This document shows, one piece after another, positions 12,797 to 64,000 of a stretch of DNA of 64,000 bases (position 1 is the stretch's first letter; each line of letters starts with the position of its first letter). The DNA lies in the NCBI GenBank assembly GCA_002778465.1, contig PFBV01000002.1, positions 2,312 to 66,311 on the forward strand. The letters are read 5' to 3'. The stretch is from Candidatus Magasanikbacteria bacterium CG10_big_fil_rev_8_21_14_0_10_36_32 (GTDB lineage: Bacteria; Patescibacteriota; Patescibacteriia; Magasanikbacterales; GWA2-37-8). The position numbers and the translations under genes were made by a program. The notes beneath the pieces are model-generated. The model did not search any database and was not told the origin of the DNA. It saw nothing but the letters and a program-made list of their open reading frames with translations.

Positions 12797-14278
12797 ATGA
12801 AGCCGGTGAAATTTTTTGAAAAAGTCGCCGGTTCCAAAAGCAAAACGTTTATTTCGTTTTGCTTTTGTTTTATTATGGGGGTTGGTTTTTTTTCTTTTAT
12901 TGAAATATCAGGAACAAAACTTTATTACTTATTAATTTGCGGTTTTGTAATTTTATTTGGTTTGATATTTTGGTGGAAAAATAAAGTGGCGCGGTTGATT
13001 TTATTGTGTTTATTGTTTGTAGTGTTGGGCAGTATGCGTTTTGTTGGTGAAATGATGTCGTCTCAGGCGGTAACAAATAATGATGGTCGGTTATTTTATG
13101 GAATTGTGGACGAAGAACCCAATTTTAAAATTGATAATGCTGAATATATTGTATCAACGGAATTTAATGAAAAAGTCTTAATCCGCCTTCCTCTTTATCC
13201 GCAATATAATTATGGCGATCGTTTAATGATTGATTGTCTTCCGGCACTTCCACAAAATTATCCTTCCGGCATATTTGATTATCGTCGTTATTTATCCAAT
13301 CAAGGAATTTTTTCGGTTTGTTTTAATCCTCCAGTCACAAAAATCGGAATTGATGAAGGTAATTTATTAAAATCAATTTTATTAAAAACCAAGAATATGG
13401 TCAGCGAACAGATAAACAGATTATTTGTTGAACCAGAAAGCAGTTTGTTGGCAGGTTTATTATATGGAGGACGCAGCGGTTTGCCTAAAGAATTGTCTGA
13501 TAGTTTTCGTCGGACAGGTTTGAGTCATATTGTGGCGGTATCAGGTTATAATATTTCCATTATTTCCGTGATATTTTTAAATATTTTAATTGTTCTTGGT
13601 TTTTCTCGTCCAAAAGCTTTTTGGTTGGCGATAATTGGTTTAGTTTCTTTTGTAATATTTACCGGCGCTTCCGCTTCAGTTGTCCGTGCCGGTATTATGG
13701 GATCATTGGTGTTGATTGCCGAAAAAGTTGGTCGGTTATCGGATGCCGGACGGTTGTTGTTTTTAGCCGGCGCTTTAATATTGCTGGTTAATCCGCGTTT
13801 ATTAGTTTGGGACGCAGGTTTTCAGTTGTCTTTTTTGGCTACTTTGGGTTTAATTTATTTAACGCCACATTTATGGTTTTCCAAAAGAAAAATTCCGGAA
13901 TTATTTTTTAACATAGTCAACCCGACTGTGGCGGCGATTATCGCTACCGCGCCGTTGATTATGTTTCAATTTGGACAGTTATCTTTGTCCGCTTTACCGG
14001 CTAATGTTTTAGTAATTTGGATGATACCATGGCTAATGTTGTTTGGATTTTTATCATTGTCTTTGGGGTGGATTTTTTATCCCTTGGGACAAATAATCGC
14101 GTGGTTGACAGGTTTTGGTTTAAAATATGTTATAATGGTGACAAGTTGGTTTTCTGCCCGAACCTGGGCGGCGGTTGAAATGAATATTTCTTGGTGGATG
14201 ATGTTAATAATGTATTTGTTAATTGTTTTATTTTTTTATGCCAAAAGTAAAAATTTTATCATCGGTCGCCGGATATGA
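12797..14278 (+). CDS. comEC: ComEC/Rec2 DNA-uptake channel protein (DUF4131 plus competence domain; no MBL domain in this ORF)
   Basis: Polytopic membrane protein; LSHIVAVSGYNISII competence-domain signature. Confidence 0.75.
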   Translation: MKPVKFFEKVAGSKSKTFISFCFCFIMGVGFFSFIEISGTKLYYLLICGFVILFGLIFWWKNKVARLILLCLLFVVLGSMRFVGEMMSSQAVTNNDGRLFYGIVDEEPNFKIDNAEYIVSTEFNEKVLIRLPLYPQYNYGDRLMIDCLPALPQNYPSGIFDYRRYLSNQGIFSVCFNPPVTKIGIDEGNLLKSILLKTKNMVSEQINRLFVEPESSLLAGLLYGGRSGLPKELSDSFRRTGLSHIVAVSGYNISIISVIFLNILIVLGFSRPKAFWLAIIGLVSFVIFTGASASVVRAGIMGSLVLIAEKVGRLSDAGRLLFLAGALILLVNPRLLVWDAGFQLSFLATLGLIYLTPHLWFSKRKIPELFFNIVNPTVAAIIATAPLIMFQFGQLSLSALPANVLVIWMIPWLMLFGFLSLSLGWIFYPLGQIIAWLTGFGLKYVIMVTSWFSARTWAAVEMNISWWMMLIMYLLIVLFFYAKSKNFIIGRRI

Positions 14279-14843
14279 TTTGTCTGCCGCCGATTATGAT
14301 AAAAAAGAAAAATATTTAAACAGTTTTGAAAAAAATAAAATTTGGCTATTGTTGGGATATTTATCTGGAAAAAAAATTTTAGATGCCGGAACAGGAACTG
14401 GACGTTTAGCTGTTGAAATGTCAAAAAATGGCGCGGAAGTAACCGCTCTTGATGTGTCGTCAGAAATGTTAAAACAGTTGTCGCGTAAAAGTAATAAAAT
14501 AAAAACCATGATTGGCGATGCTGAATGTTTGCCTTTTGACAAAGAGATTTTTGATTTGGTGACAGCCGCTTTTTTAATCGTTCATTTTAAGGATCCTTCT
14601 CGTTTTTTTGACGAAGCTTATCGTGTATTGAAAGATGGTGGAAGATTATTGGTGACAAATATTAATCAAAAAGAACCGCCAGAAATAAAAACTAAGCAAG
14701 GAGTTATAAAAATTGAATCGTTTTATCATCGCCCGGAAAAAATCAGGGAGATTTTACAGTCATTGGCTTTTACCATTGAAAAAGAAATTATTGTTAAAGA
14801 AGGGGAGAATTGGATAAATCAGATAATAGTAGCTAAAAAATAA
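14238..14843 (+). CDS. Class I SAM-dependent methyltransferase
   Basis: LDAGTGTGRLAV (motif I) and ALDVS acidic motif II. ATG at 14238 is preferred; the ORF track starts at a TTG at 14223. Overlaps the comEC 3' end. Confidence 0.75.
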   Translation: MPKVKILSSVAGYDLSAADYDKKEKYLNSFEKNKIWLLLGYLSGKKILDAGTGTGRLAVEMSKNGAEVTALDVSSEMLKQLSRKSNKIKTMIGDAECLPFDKEIFDLVTAAFLIVHFKDPSRFFDEAYRVLKDGGRLLVTNINQKEPPEIKTKQGVIKIESFYHRPEKIREILQSLAFTIEKEIIVKEGENWINQIIVAKK

Positions 14844-15128
14844 TTCACCCCGTTAGAGATATTTATGGTTTATATTTATTTAATGCAGAGCAAGAAAGAT
14901 AATCTTTGGTATACAGGTGCTACTAGAGATTTAAAAAAACGTTTTAAAGAGCATAATGATGGGAAAGTAAAAGCAACAAGGGATAGAAGACCTTTTGTGT
15001 TAATATATTATGAAGCTTGTTTGAATGAACACGATGCTTTTACTCGTGAAAAATATTTAAAGTCAGGAATGGGAAAACGTTATCTTAAAAATCGTTTAAA
15101 ACGTTTTTTATCTCTAACGGGGTAAATT
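14842..15128. mobile_element. 287-bp mini-element: GIY-YIG gene bounded by 19-bp terminal inverted repeats (18 of 19 bp match)
   Basis: Left IR AATTCACCCCGTTAGAGAT (14842-14860) against right IR ATCTCTAACGGGGTAAATT (15110-15128). The element sits exactly between the methyltransferase stop and the start of the MBL gene. Confidence 0.4.
14865..15125 (+). CDS. Small GIY-YIG nuclease family protein (YhbQ/UPF0213-like)
   Basis: VYIYLMQS...LWYTGATRDLKKRFKEHN GIY-YIG motif; 86 aa; homologous to the ORF at 47285. Confidence 0.8.
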   Translation: MVYIYLMQSKKDNLWYTGATRDLKKRFKEHNDGKVKATRDRRPFVLIYYEACLNEHDAFTREKYLKSGMGKRYLKNRLKRFLSLTG

Positions 15129-15986
15129 ATGAAAAAGTTGTTTATAGTTATAGTAGTTGTCCTGCTGTTAAGCGTGGGCTTATTTTATTATATTCATTTT
15201 TCCGCCAATGAAAAAAAATTTGATATTATTTTTTTTGATGTTGGGCAAGGCGATGCAACGCTGGTGCGTTTTGAAGATGGAAGTAAAATGTTGGTAGATT
15301 GCGGACCGGACAGGACTATTTTGAAAAAACTCGGACAATATCTTCCTTTTTATGACCGGACGATTGATTATTTGCTTATTACTCATCCGGACAATGATCA
15401 TTATGGCGGTTGTGTTGACGTATTGCGTCGTTATCAAGTGAAAAATATAATTACAAATAGTGATCGTAAACCGGACGATACTTTTTGGCAAACTTGGCGT
15501 TTTTATGAAGAAAATGAAGATGCAAAAATTTTTATCATTGATGAACCGCAAATTTTTGAAATTGGGAACAATAAAATTGAATTTATTTATCCGGATACAT
15601 CTTTAATTTTATCTTCAGCCGGCGATACCAGCAATAATCAATCGTTGGTTTTTCGTTTAGTTGATAAAAGTGTAAAAGTTTTATTTACCGGAGATATTGA
15701 AGAATCATTGGAAAATGCTTTGATAAAAAAATATTGTTCAATTACAAACTGCCCTTTTTTATCAGCTGATATTTTGAAGGTCGCCCATCATGGCAGTGAC
15801 ACGTCAAGCAGTGAAGAATTTTTGAATGCGTCTAATCCGAAAGCGGCAGTGATTTCCGTCGGTCAGAATCGTTTTGGACATCCGTCTTTGCGAGTTTTGA
15901 AAAAGATGGAACGTTTACCGGTAATTGTTTTGCGCACTGATGAGTATGGCGATATTACATTTGACAAAATTTTAAAAACATGGTAA
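15129..15986 (+). CDS. ComEC-type metallo-beta-lactamase-fold domain protein (stand-alone ComEC C-terminal domain)
   Basis: N-terminal TM helix, DVGQGDATLV and HPDNDHYGG (HxDxDH) motifs, and VAHHGS. Confidence 0.7.
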   Translation: MKKLFIVIVVVLLLSVGLFYYIHFSANEKKFDIIFFDVGQGDATLVRFEDGSKMLVDCGPDRTILKKLGQYLPFYDRTIDYLLITHPDNDHYGGCVDVLRRYQVKNIITNSDRKPDDTFWQTWRFYEENEDAKIFIIDEPQIFEIGNNKIEFIYPDTSLILSSAGDTSNNQSLVFRLVDKSVKVLFTGDIEESLENALIKKYCSITNCPFLSADILKVAHHGSDTSSSEEFLNASNPKAAVISVGQNRFGHPSLRVLKKMERLPVIVLRTDEYGDITFDKILKTW

Positions 15987-19060: not shown

Positions 19061-20403
19061 TATTTAATATGTTATCTCGCCTTACTAATTATCTTATCCT
19101 CTTATTTTTATTTGCGTTGCCTTTTCAAACCCGTTGGATTATTGAATATGGAATTTTAAATAATCGTCCATGGGAATTTGGGACTATCAGTTTGTATGGT
19201 ACGGAATTTTTTTTATGGCTGATAGTGATTTTGACCGGCATTCGGATTTTTGGCCGACCGGATTTTTGGAAATCATTCTCAAATTGTAGAATCAATGCTG
19301 ATTATTTTAAAATGCACAAAAAAAATATATTGGCTGTTTTGATTTTTTTATTCAGCACGGCTGTTTTTATACGTTCCGGCAATCCGATATCATGGCAATT
19401 TACCACTTGGTTTTTGGGAGGAATATGTTTAATGATTTCAATAGCTGTATCTGAATTATCTTTTTCCCGTGCCGGCATGACATTGTGGTTAAGCGGGGTT
19501 GTGCAAGGAGTATTGGCAGTTCAACAATTTTTTTATCAAAAAATTATTGGTTCAAAATGGTTAGGTATGTCCGCACAAAATTCAAGTGACTCAGGAGTTA
19601 GTGTGGTGCAGTTTGGTGACGAACGCTGGCTGAGAGCCTATGGCAGTTTTGGATGGCCTAATTCTTTGGGAATTTATTTAGCAGTTATCTTTGTTTTGGG
19701 TTTAATTTTATATTTTTATTTTTCTAAAACTAAATGGCGAATATTAATCCTGGTGGGACAATTGATTATTCTAACGGGGTTATTATTGTCTTTTTCCCGC
19801 GGTGCTTGGTTGGCGGCAGTTGGCGGTTTGCTTATTTTTGGGTTGATTGCTTGGAATAATCTGCCTTTTGAATTTACGCGGCGTAAATTTTATAGTCAAT
19901 TTGTAAAACAGTTGGCAGTTTATGCGGTATTAGTAATCAGTCTGGTGACGATTTATTTTCCAGTTTTTACAAATCGGTTTAATACAGGTAATTATTTGGA
20001 ATATTTATCTATAACGGAACGGCAAGATCAATTGAATGTTGCTGGTCAGATGATATCGGACAATTTATTTTTTGGTGTTGGCCCCGGATTGTACACTAAT
20101 TATTTGGCTAGATATTTTGTTTCGCCGACATATGGAGTTTATCAGCCTGTCCATAATATTTTTTTATTAGCACTGGCTGAATTGGGTATATTTGTGTTTT
20201 TATTTATTTTGGTCTTTGTCTTTTGGTTGATTAAAAAAATCGGTCGCGCCGGACCGATTTATTTTTCCGTTTTGACAGTTTTGTTTTTAGCCGGTTTTTA
20301 TGATCATTTTCTTTGGAGTTTATACGCCGGTCAGTTGATTTGGTGGGTGGTTTTGGCTTTAGGATTAATGTTAAAAAAATCGCAATCCAATATTGAAAAA
20401 TAA
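19039..20403 (+). CDS. O-antigen ligase (Wzy_C) family membrane protein
   Basis: Polytopic; SFSRGAWLAAVGG motif. Confidence 0.7.
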   Translation: MEKQNKLIFNMLSRLTNYLILLFLFALPFQTRWIIEYGILNNRPWEFGTISLYGTEFFLWLIVILTGIRIFGRPDFWKSFSNCRINADYFKMHKKNILAVLIFLFSTAVFIRSGNPISWQFTTWFLGGICLMISIAVSELSFSRAGMTLWLSGVVQGVLAVQQFFYQKIIGSKWLGMSAQNSSDSGVSVVQFGDERWLRAYGSFGWPNSLGIYLAVIFVLGLILYFYFSKTKWRILILVGQLIILTGLLLSFSRGAWLAAVGGLLIFGLIAWNNLPFEFTRRKFYSQFVKQLAVYAVLVISLVTIYFPVFTNRFNTGNYLEYLSITERQDQLNVAGQMISDNLFFGVGPGLYTNYLARYFVSPTYGVYQPVHNIFLLALAELGIFVFLFILVFVFWLIKKIGRAGPIYFSVLTVLFLAGFYDHFLWSLYAGQLIWWVVLALGLMLKKSQSNIEK

Positions 20404-47221: not shown

Positions 47222-47274
47222 GGAGAGGTGGCTTCTGAGCTCCTGCCTGCCGGTAGGCAGGGGTCGAAAGCGGT
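47222..47274 (+). pseudogene. Decayed duplicate of the first 29 nt of tRNA-Ser(GCU), with a 20-bp palindrome inserted in the D-loop
   Basis: GGAGAGGTGGCT-TCT-GAGCT-[CCTGCCTGCCGGTAGGCAGG]-G-GTCGAAAGCGG matches nt 1-29 of the intact tRNA at 47529; interrupted by TCT and the palindrome. Confidence 0.5.
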
Positions 47275-47284
47275 AATAAAATTT

Positions 47285-47527
47285 ATGTATTGCGTGTATT
47301 TTTTACAAAGTCTGAAAGATAAAGGTTTGTACATCGGAAAAACGAATAATATTAAACGTCGGTTATCTGAACACAACGCCGGTAAAGTTCAATCGACAAA
47401 AAGTAGAAAACCTTTTATTTTGTTGGGATTAGAAAAATACCAAACAGAAAAAGAATGTTTGGCGGCAGAATTAGAATGGAAAAAAGGATATAAACGCGAA
47501 CAATTAAAAGTTAGATATAGTCTATAA
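47285..47527 (+). CDS. Small GIY-YIG nuclease family protein (paralogue of 14865..15125)
   Basis: VYFLQSLKDKGLYIGKTNNIKRRLSEHN GIY-YIG motif; 80 aa; the stop codon lies 1 nt (t47528) before nt 1 of tRNA-Ser. The ORF-track start at 47165 reads through the tRNA fragment and is rejected. Confidence 0.75.
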   Translation: MYCVYFLQSLKDKGLYIGKTNNIKRRLSEHNAGKVQSTKSRKPFILLGLEKYQTEKECLAAELEWKKGYKREQLKVRYSL

Positions 47528-47528
47528 T

Positions 47529-47624
<96 letters not shown>

Positions 47625-52861: not shown

Positions 52862-53095
52862 AATTGATATTGGGGGAATGAACCCCCTAGAGTTCCGTAT
52901 TCAAGAAGATGTGTCAAAGGTGGAGATAAGCCGTGGCCTATGCAGACCGTTAACACATCCCCATGCTTGTGGTGAATACGGGAAATTGCTCGTTTTTTCT
53001 CGTTAAAAGGGGCAATTTCTCGTATTCTTACAGCATTGGATGTCCGTAGATTTTCAAACAACAAAGTATTGTATCACATCTAAATCATTTTGTCA

Positions 53096-53212
53096 ACCCC
53101 GTTAGAAAAGCCAATTGAAAAATTTTAGTAATCTTAGCCTAAAAATTGAATAATACCCTGTGGATAAACCTTTAGAAAAGCATCTTTTCGTGGAATAATT
53201 TTCTAACGGGGT
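53096..53212. repeat. Perfect 14-bp inverted-repeat pair enclosing ~90 bp with no ORF; same core as the GIY-YIG element IRs
   Basis: ACCCCGTTAGAAAA (53096-53109) against TTTTCTAACGGGGT (53199-53212); the core ACCCCGTTAGA is shared with the IRs at 14842/15128. Confidence 0.45.
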
Positions 53213-53221
53213 CAAGCCCGA

Positions 53222-53241
53222 CCTGCCTGCCGGCAGGCAGG
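53222..53241. repeat. 20-bp perfect palindrome CCTGCCTGCCGGCAGGCAGG within a ~80-bp GC-rich hairpin cluster
   Basis: The same palindrome (one mismatch) sits inside the tRNA 5' fragment at 47242-47261; local GC exceeds 65% against a ~35% background. Confidence 0.45.
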
Positions 53242-53421
53242 CGTAAAAAAGTCGGGGTCCCGACCCCCCAAAGGGGCGTCGGGAGGGATCAATTTAGTCA
53301 TTTTTTGGTTTAAACTGGGGAAAAATATTATTTTTGGCTAATGTTAGGGTTAAAATCTGTATTATCCGTATTTTGTTTATTAATTCAAGTCAATGTGTTA
53401 ATTTTATTTATTTTTATTTCA

Positions 53422-63712: not shown

Positions 63713-63819
63713 GAAGCCTAATTTTATATTCCTTTATAACATTGTAAATCCAAATTTGTTTTTGTTTCGTCATGCTTCGGTATGACCACCAAAAACAAAC
63801 TTCAAACTTATATTAAGAG

Positions 63820-64000
63820 TTTGATCCTAGCTCAGGATGAACGCTGGCGGCGTGTCTAAGGCATGCAAGTCGAGCGACGTGTTCCCCGCAAGGGGAATTA
63901 CGAGCGGCAAACGGGTGAGTAACACATTGGTAACCTACCTCTAAGTCGGGGATAGCCTGCCGAAAGGCGGATTAATACCCGATAGTAACGCGGGGGCAAA
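63820..64000 (+). rRNA. rrs: 16S ribosomal RNA, 5' end (truncated by window end)
   Basis: AGAGTTTGATCCTAGCTCAGGATGAACGCTGGCGGCGTG...GCATGCAAGTCGAGCG universal 5' region. Confidence 0.92.

Follow-up and report, generated by a model that had tools for sequence, protein, structure and literature searches.

A 64,000-nt stretch of the genome of Candidatus Magasanikbacteria bacterium CG10_big_fil_rev_8_21_14_0_10_36_32 (contig PFBV01000002.1, positions 2,312 to 66,311; hereafter the window) contained a small GIY-YIG gene enclosed by inverted repeats, between a methyltransferase gene and a gene for a protein of the metallo-beta-lactamase (MBL) fold. The segment 14848-15122 of the window (14842-15128 with extended arms) was probably one copy of a mobile DNA element of about 275 bp, with terminal inverted repeats (TIRs) of 12-14 bp (YCCCGTTAGAGA...TCTCTAACGGGR). 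The original prediction of a compact insertion bounded by inverted repeats was supported by conserved arms, by orthologous junctions free of the element and by short copies with target duplication.

Inverted 19-mers occupied 14842-14860 (AATTCACCCCGTTAGAGAT) and 15110-15128 (ATCTCTAACGGGGTAAATT) and matched at 18 of 19 positions, as had been claimed; a repeat search lengthened the arms to 22 nt (14840-14861 and 15109-15130; 21 of 22 positions, 95%, complementary), leaving 247 nt between them. With at most three mismatches, the 15-nt core occurred four times in the window, against a mean of 0.62 in shuffled sequences (0 of 100 shuffles reached four). The left arm (+ strand), recovered by arm search, alignment and covariation, carried its core from 14848 and overlapped TTCAC (14844-14848, +), the left extension typical of the subfamily of this copy; the core of the right arm (+) ran to 15122, followed by GTAAA (15122-15126, +), the source of the stop codon TAA. 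The open reading frame (ORF) at 14865-15125 (+) encoded an 86-aa protein of Slx1/UPF0213 type with a GIY-YIG domain (PF01541, E = 1e-16), and its final codons TCT CTA ACG GGG (SLTG) formed the right arm. The methyltransferase gene closed with TAA at 14841-14843, the GIY-YIG gene closed with TAA at 15123-15125 and the MBL gene opened with ATG at 15129. No spacer DNA therefore remained on either side, and the tight fit of the arms between the neighbouring genes was borne out. A promoter and terminator scan found nothing inside the element that exceeded shuffled expectation, and the operon terminator followed the MBL gene. At the Rfam gathering threshold there was no match in or near the element, the matches in the window being limited to tRNA and the start of a 16S rRNA.

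The upstream ORF encoded a class I methyltransferase, itself preceded by a protein with ComEC N-terminal and Competence domains, and the ORF starting at 15129 encoded a membrane-anchored MBL-fold protein. ComEC was split in this region (12797-15986) into an N-terminal protein (DUF4131 and Competence) and the separate membrane-anchored MBL protein, with the methyltransferase between them. The order ComEC-N, methyltransferase, MBL, NusA and YidC was kept in related Patescibacteria, so that the split was older than the GIY-YIG insertion. At four orthologous loci (L097, L098, L104, L105), compared as the original prediction had proposed, the GIY-YIG gene was missing and 1-22 nt separated the methyltransferase stop from the MBL start (junction AAAATAAAATG in L098), and at two others (L085, L086) the slot held an unrelated ORF of 136-154 aa. 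These comparisons show that the GIY-YIG unit is an insertion absent from orthologous junctions; the opposite outcome, in which every relative would carry the gene with no difference in presence or absence, was not seen, as relatives without the element existed.

Another relative (L084) carried a copy of about 100 bp at exactly the site of the window copy, with the left arm and the first 25 codons followed by the right arm. The MBL, NusA and YidC proteins of the two hosts were 65%, 81% and 85% identical, respectively. At the DNA level, the retained parts of the element were 96-100% identical and the flanking genes 72-77%, so the two element copies are much younger than the host divergence, yet they sat at the same junction. 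The flanks diverged directly outside the arms, limiting any co-conversion to a few nucleotides. Exact look-up of the window MBL protein, made in search of strains without the insert, showed a single place with the contig broken inside the element. This Logan contig (L081, positions 1-59), with an identical MBL protein, ended 59 nt upstream of the MBL gene, perhaps because the assembly broke at a repeat or at a polymorphic site.

The protein collection held 4948 homologues, mostly of 86 aa and 70-80% identical, nearly all of which ended in RFLSLTG; N-terminally extended ORF calls read MNPVRE/D, the translation of the left arm (AAC CCC GTT AGA GA). A scan of species-representative genomes gave more than 573 relatives, of which the best 80 loci were examined. 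Among these were loci of Patescibacteria, Planctomycetota, Omnitrophota, Elusimicrobia, Desulfobacterota, Bdellovibrionota, Gammaproteobacteria, Clostridia, Balneolaceae and others, more than ten phyla in all, and about 76 of the 80 had the ORF flanked by the same arms (core CCCGTTAGAGA...TCTCTAACGGG). Arm variants were paired (ATACCG/CGGTAT, ATCACG/CGTGAT, GTTTGAGA/TCTCAAAC, AGAGC/GCTCT). A family of small GIY-YIG elements bounded by inverted repeats, as originally suspected, thus extends over many bacterial phyla. Arms around unrelated genes were looked for in 900 kb of fetched loci and not seen, and no arm pairs lay 340-4000 bp apart there. Phage, plasmid and viral collections yielded distant relatives only, the element family being almost absent from them. 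Some loci held several full copies (three in L039, two in L007). A half-site at 19770 of the window was rejected as a chance match inside a membrane-protein ORF (..ILTG..).

Besides full copies, the 80 loci contained 33 arm pairs of 31-181 bp without an ORF. A sample of Patescibacteria loci drawn without bias (80 MBL loci, 245 kb) yielded five short copies but not a single full one. The inverted-repeat pair that had been noted as 'empty' (here placed at 53095-53213 of the window) proved to be a real, short member of the same family (53097-53211, +; C-CCCGTTAGA...TCTAACGGG-G, inside 53093-53215), with TCAA directly repeated on its two sides (4 bp; 53093-53096 and 53212-53215), and matching in architecture the short elements with proven empty sites. 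Such sites were found by searching element flanks against all loci, and three filled copies could be set against their empty counterparts: GG[TTCA]C-CCCG...CGGG-G[TTAA]GG in L130 against GG TGAA AG in L171; AAC[TAAA]C-CCCG...CGGG-G[TAAA]GGTCGA in L172 against AAC AAAA GGTCGA in L143 and L126; and TAT[TTGA]C-CCCG...CGGG-G[TTGA]CAACC in L082 against CAT TTGA CAA in the window and L084. The duplicated targets were TTCA/TTAA, TAAA and TTGA. From these three clean comparisons, the element can be defined for short copies as Y-CCCG...CGGG-R with a 4-bp TNNA target duplication (AAAAAATAAATTATG being an example of an empty RTNNAY target). In two loci (L009, L033) a C...G-ended copy sat on a start codon and the right-hand ATG had become GTG, which fits the terminal purine being part of the element. 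Flanking direct repeats were in excess in a single register: they were perfect over 5 nt around 9 of 31 short copies (partner-shuffled mean 1.4, maximum 6); around full copies, 21 of 78 were perfect against 6.7 expected from partner shuffling.

Two short copies (L084 and L046) kept pieces of the ORF, and short derivatives accordingly arise by internal deletion. The interiors of short copies were mutually unrelated, some copies lay at ATGAA sites, and their terminal type (T..A or C..G) agreed with that of the full copy at the same locus in 20 cases against 3. Being small and ORF-less, with shared TIRs and a duplication, the short copies, including the one at 53097-53211, can be classed by their sequence features as miniature inverted-repeat transposable elements (MITEs). 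Some were translated with their hosts: a short element in L130 (2588-2662) lengthened a host ORF of about 450 codons by 27 codons in frame, and one in L082 (933-1027) replaced the last few MBL residues with PVRK and a stop.

Surviving full copies lay at the 5' boundary of a host gene of the same orientation, and every full copy with a callable downstream host ORF faced the same way as the host gene. The host ATG directly abutted the terminal CGGG in 30 of 77 copies (..ACG GGA TGA, the stop overlapping ATGA), the host start was within 1-8 nt in 13 and at 9-30 nt in 7, an in-frame fusion to the host ORF was found in 7, and 20 had no long ORF start within 30 nt. Fourteen copies lacked an in-frame ATG within 40 nt of the left arm; nine of them began at an in-frame flanking ATG (ATG AAT CCC GTT AGA GA., MNPVRD/E..), so that the left arm was translated. 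Insertion sites fell in many unrelated genes, and host genes beside them, as judged by N-terminal sequence, included topoisomerase I, PheT, Pth, RuvC and Xth. Three copies in L039 (3225-3501, 3983-4259 and 5836-6112), two of them about 98% identical, stood in frame at the G|FTLIE prepilin-peptidase motif of pilin-like genes, the G-F-T motif being duplicated by insertion; full and short copies lay likewise at prepilin sites of type IV pilin-like genes in L020 (3385-3510 and 3980-4257) and L032 (4930-4986). At such sites the nuclease would be made within an enlarged leader peptide, and release of the mature pilin could still be possible. The placement as a whole was read as a (R)TNNA(Y) target preference combined with survival of those insertions that leave the host gene expressible.

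The encoded protein belonged to the superfamily of GIY-YIG nucleases, Slx1/UPF0213 branch, with the motifs, the catalytic Arg, the metal-binding Glu and the fold of that group. Y5, Y16, R26, H30 and E62 were invariant among homologues and N76 nearly so. An AlphaFold (AF2) model (pLDDT 89) predicted the GIY-YIG sheet (strands 2-9, 15-20 and 44-52) with its helices and a long basic C-terminal helix (residues 68-85), that is, a catalytic core plus one helix and no further DNA-binding domain. Among solved structures, UPF0213 proteins of bacteria (1zg2 and 1ywl) and SLX1 of eukaryotes came closest; the catalytic domain of I-TevI ranked next. With a pN/pS ratio of 0.30 and an overall pS of 0.75 for the family ORF, the protein was under purifying selection.

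Alignment of 68 full elements (A4) and consensus folding with RNAalifold bore out the terminal inverted repeat and placed a second conserved helix inside it. The outer, terminal one, P1 (columns 3-16 paired with 282-295), corresponded in the window to the arms at 14842-14860 (5') and 15110-15128 (3'). The inner helix P2 (columns 107-118 with 269-280) paired the codons of residues 23-27 (L-R/K-K-R-F) with the codons of residues 78-82 (L-K-R-F-L). In the window it was a perfect 15-nt inverted repeat (100% complementary), with its 5' arm at 14934-14948 (+; codons K-K-R-F-K, residues 24-28) and its 3' arm at 15095-15109 (+; L-K-R-F-L, residues 78-82), the latter continuous with the right terminal arm. 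Folding the repeats as a hairpin, a check that had been proposed, gave a closing stem in the minimum free energy (MFE) structure of the window RNA (z = -4.8). In the A4 helices, 97.5% of cells were paired (89.7% in shuffles) and 168 cells were compensatory (42±10 in shuffles, 0 of 500 as high; 10-25 in slid-partner controls). Covariation fell at codon wobble positions, as in columns 111/276 (A-U 30, G-C 29), 114/273 (C-G 46, U-A 17) and 117/270 (U-A 32, C-G 23, G-C 5). Codon choice was frozen in the helices only (Ser83 TCT in 56 of 56, Leu84 CTA in 60 of 62, Thr85 ACG in 62 of 62, Arg24 CGG in 54 of 58, Arg26 and Arg80 CGY), and the remaining Arg, Leu and Ser codons varied freely. Because codons were frozen there and free elsewhere (pS 0.75), the two helices are under a separate constraint at the nucleic-acid level, beyond protein selection.

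The stretch deleted from the L084 short copy ran exactly from the P2 5' arm to the P2 3' arm. Short elements of about 120 bp (L009, L010, L016, L020, L026, L044, L063) had a G+C-rich hairpin directly before the right arm. In all eight strong cases (ΔG <= -10 kcal/mol), the L084 deletion copy among them, the hairpin lay on the right-arm side, in the orientation of the genes next to it, and it may locally stand in for P2.

How such an element moves can be proposed with less assurance. A possible reading, to which we give somewhat less than an even chance, is that the family represents the smallest autonomous DNA transposon (about 275 bp) and a new class of transposase, a stand-alone Slx1-like GIY-YIG nuclease that acts on its own folded or inverted-repeat ends and on TNNA targets with the help of host ligation or repair, and occupies a niche at start codons and prepilin sites, where the 4-bp duplication (A)TGA(A) would give the element its start and stop codons and give the host back its start codon. 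The nuclease, as the sole activity encoded by the element, would drive its movement, most likely by making staggered cuts at the junctions of element and flank and at TNNA targets. SLX1 is described as cleaving branched DNA close to the branch point (PMC6902002), so a plausible substrate is the point where P1 and P2 meet when folded, or else a junction at the foot of the arms, and the nuclease might recognise the folded P1/P2 junction as Slx1 does branched DNA. Host ligation or repair would complete excision and insertion; excision of the window copy would join AAAAAATAA directly to ATTATG, and short copies would be mobilised in trans. As no promoter or terminator signal rose above chance, the element would be transcribed and translated with the host operon (ComEC-N, methyltransferase, GIY-YIG, MBL). 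In many copies the left one of the duplicated ATGA would supply the start codon of the element, and at the right one the TGA stop of the element would overlap the restored ATG of the host, whose gene would be expressed by translational coupling. The close spacing at TAA...ATG and TAA-ATT-ATG would do the same job in the window copy.

Several observations weigh against a self-moving element. An 86-aa hydrolytic nuclease alone cannot carry out strand transfer. For full-length copies, the comparison of filled with empty sites yielded no clean pair, and about half of the full copies had no clear direct repeat, including that of the window, which was flanked by TTCA on the left and TAAA on the right. 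In its subfamily of eight loci (TTCAC left, GTAAA right, own TAA stop), TAA(A) stood on both sides in four, in an inconsistent register, and no duplication could be defined. One full copy seemed to be present in most genomes. Identical full-length copies of three proteins (P0089, P0027, P0032) each remained at one stable locus in 14-22 contigs; identical proteins at several places, sought as a sign of recent transposition, were not seen, and full copies look nearly static within populations, with low activity. On the sense strand, G·U pairs exceeded A·C pairs (42 against 16 overall, 23 against 5 in P2), which suggests that P2, at least, works as a single strand with the polarity of the sense strand, either RNA or single-stranded DNA; the terminal arms alone had no bias (29 against 32) and were uninformative. 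This points to a role of P2 that is superfluous to a DNA cut-and-paste picture.

Some of these features would be explained if the units were MITE-like and moved in trans by a conventional transposase, the GIY-YIG gene being cargo or a selfish rider, which we regard as unlikely. Elements of the IS1380/piggyBac kind have CC(C)...GG(G) ends and a 4-bp duplication, and the TNNA duplication and CCC...GGG termini observed here resemble the products of such DDE transposons; the excess of short over full copies in the unbiased 245 kb (5 against 0) and the apparent immobility of full copies within populations also fit a passenger gene. Against it stand the lack of any larger parent unit with the same arms, and of arm pairs 340-4000 bp apart, in the 900 kb of fetched loci (a whole-genome search for a conventional transposase with these ends was not made), the agreement of short copies with the terminal type of the local full copy (20 to 3) and the occurrence of the family mainly in reduced Patescibacteria genomes. 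Moreover, the right arm is the last four codons of the ORF and the left arm is often translated; because the arms are part of the coding sequence, the ORF and the ends have co-evolved across more than ten phyla.

A free-standing homing gene that invades existing palindromic repeats, so that short inverted-repeat pairs would be targets and not derivatives, appeared very unlikely. It would account for the near-identity of element DNA at a shared site in two hosts with genes that are just 65-85% identical, and for short copies that also sit at ATGAA sites; GIY-YIG is a classic fold of homing endonucleases, with the I-TevI catalytic domain among the structural matches. However, the ORF pieces in L084 and L046 indicate that some short copies derive from full ones, short-copy interiors are unrelated to one another, and the short copies are themselves insertions with target duplications, whose mobility would still need a mechanism. 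Co-conversion of flanks did not extend beyond a few nucleotides, and the protein lacked an extra DNA-binding domain beyond its core and helix. The window held no intron RNA family, the flanks diverged at the arms and insertions occupied many unrelated sites, and classification as a homing endonuclease gene was rejected. Most improbable of all was an ordinary host gene whose repeats are only mRNA helices for translation, stability or processing: recovery of both helices by RNAalifold, the G·U excess on the sense strand, the stable window fold with its closing stem and the partial location of the host start codon within P1 speak for it, but as a sole explanation it is contradicted by the filled-versus-empty comparisons, by presence or absence at orthologous junctions, by ORF-less copies with target duplications, by in-frame copies inside unrelated genes and by a patchy spread over many phyla at 60-80% identity. 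An RNA role of P2 may nonetheless exist alongside mobility.

A second GIY-YIG gene of the window (47285-47527) was confirmed as a paralogue (40% identity), but it had no such arms and was not an element of the same kind. It lay 1 nt upstream of tRNA-Ser(GCT) (47529-47624) and was preceded by a duplicate of the first approximately 30 nt of that tRNA (47222-47275). Its relatives stood 0-22 nt upstream of an intact tRNA-Ser at 4 of 4 loci examined (three distinct places), each preceded by a duplicated 5' tRNA part in which the palindrome CCTGCCTGCCGGCAGGCAGG, in one to three copies, interrupted the D-loop; the same layout beside tRNA-Ser(GCT or GGA) was found in L218, L220 and L221/L222. By this arrangement the gene belongs to a different GIY-YIG family linked to tRNA-Ser, and the region 47222-47624 looks like a separate, tRNA-Ser-specific GIY-YIG insertion with a target duplication of about 30 nt. 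The 20-bp perfect palindrome occurred at 47242-47261 and 53222-53241 of the window, the latter right after the short element, and at about 1361 in L087 as well as in L218, L220 and L221. It recurred in distant Patescibacteria, both in the D-loops of tRNA-Ser fragments (one to three in tandem) and alone in intergenic DNA. More G+C-rich palindromic stretches (GTCGGGGTCCCGACCCC..GGGGCGTCGGGAGGG) followed the short element and the palindrome at 53243-53300, in intergenic DNA; the genome was otherwise A+T-rich. At 63809 a 16S rRNA gene began with its 5' end, and it continued past the window edge at 64000.

Among known systems, insertion sequences (IS) and MITEs share with this family the TIRs, a fixed 4-bp duplication (T..A), ORF-less deletion derivatives and an ORF that runs into the right end; presence or absence and multiple copies were also observed here, without a recognised class of transposase. 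The only ORF matched GIY-YIG, and no DDE, HUH, serine or tyrosine transposase was encoded. The element measured about 275 bp and nearly always stood at the start of a co-oriented gene, while the smallest autonomous IS known to us (IS200) has about 700 bp. By end sequence and duplication length, IS1380/piggyBac was the nearest type. REP/RAYT-REPIN systems likewise have usually one nuclease gene per genome between inverted motifs, and ORF-less doublets that match the local variant. RAYTs, however, are HUH Y1 transposases and REPINs are extragenic without target duplication, whereas this family has a GIY-YIG protein, a 4-bp duplication and some insertions inside genes; membership was rejected on the basis of the protein. 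Rickettsia palindromic elements (RPEs) are also short palindromic repeats that lie in frame in genes and are translated, as in L130, L032 and L082; their sequences are unrelated to this family and, to our knowledge, they occur in Rickettsiales only and are not accompanied by a nuclease gene. Correia elements of Neisseria are small TIR elements that are co-transcribed with their neighbours and have RNA-hairpin arms; they differ in a TA duplication, 26-bp arms, the lack of an ORF and restriction to one genus, and we know of no transposase for them.

Free-standing GIY-YIG homing endonucleases (I-TevI, Seg and Mob of T-even phages) resemble the element protein in their catalytic fold, in being selfish and in recurring at one and the same site of different hosts, but possess long DNA-binding domains, lack inverted-repeat ends and target duplication, co-convert flanks and are mostly phage-borne. 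The best matches in sequence and fold were Slx1 and UPF0213 proteins (BH0048 1zg2, EF2693 1ywl, YazA/YhbQ), for which ends, target duplications and ORF-less derivatives are not described. A superfamily survey published in 2006 assigned the stand-alone UPF0213 proteins of bacteria to the Slx1 family and took them to be mostly vertically inherited, in keeping with the view of Slx1/UPF0213 as vertically inherited housekeeping nucleases, and asked whether more GIY-YIG members could be molecular parasites (PMC1564403). A literature search of incomplete coverage turned up no account of the arm sequence or of an insertion sequence, MITE or transposase of the GIY-YIG type in prokaryotes. The element family is apparently widespread and undescribed, and we know of no prokaryotic IS family with a GIY-YIG enzyme.

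If the proposed mechanism is true, transposition by a hydrolytic, structure-specific nuclease would form a new mechanistic class, and the size limit of autonomous elements would fall below 300 bp. Many of the small UPF0213/YhbQ-type proteins, which carry the annotation of repair nuclease or 'excinuclease ABC subunit C' in thousands of genomes, may be selfish. For annotation, N-terminally extended or fused ORFs in candidate-phyla genomes (MNPVRE..., ...SLTG-FTLIE...) are insertion artefacts, downstream host genes would rely on translational coupling through the element, and short copies are translated within host proteins. The family would also offer an example of low-cost parasitism, in which the target duplication supplies the start and stop codons of the parasite and repairs the start codon of the host.

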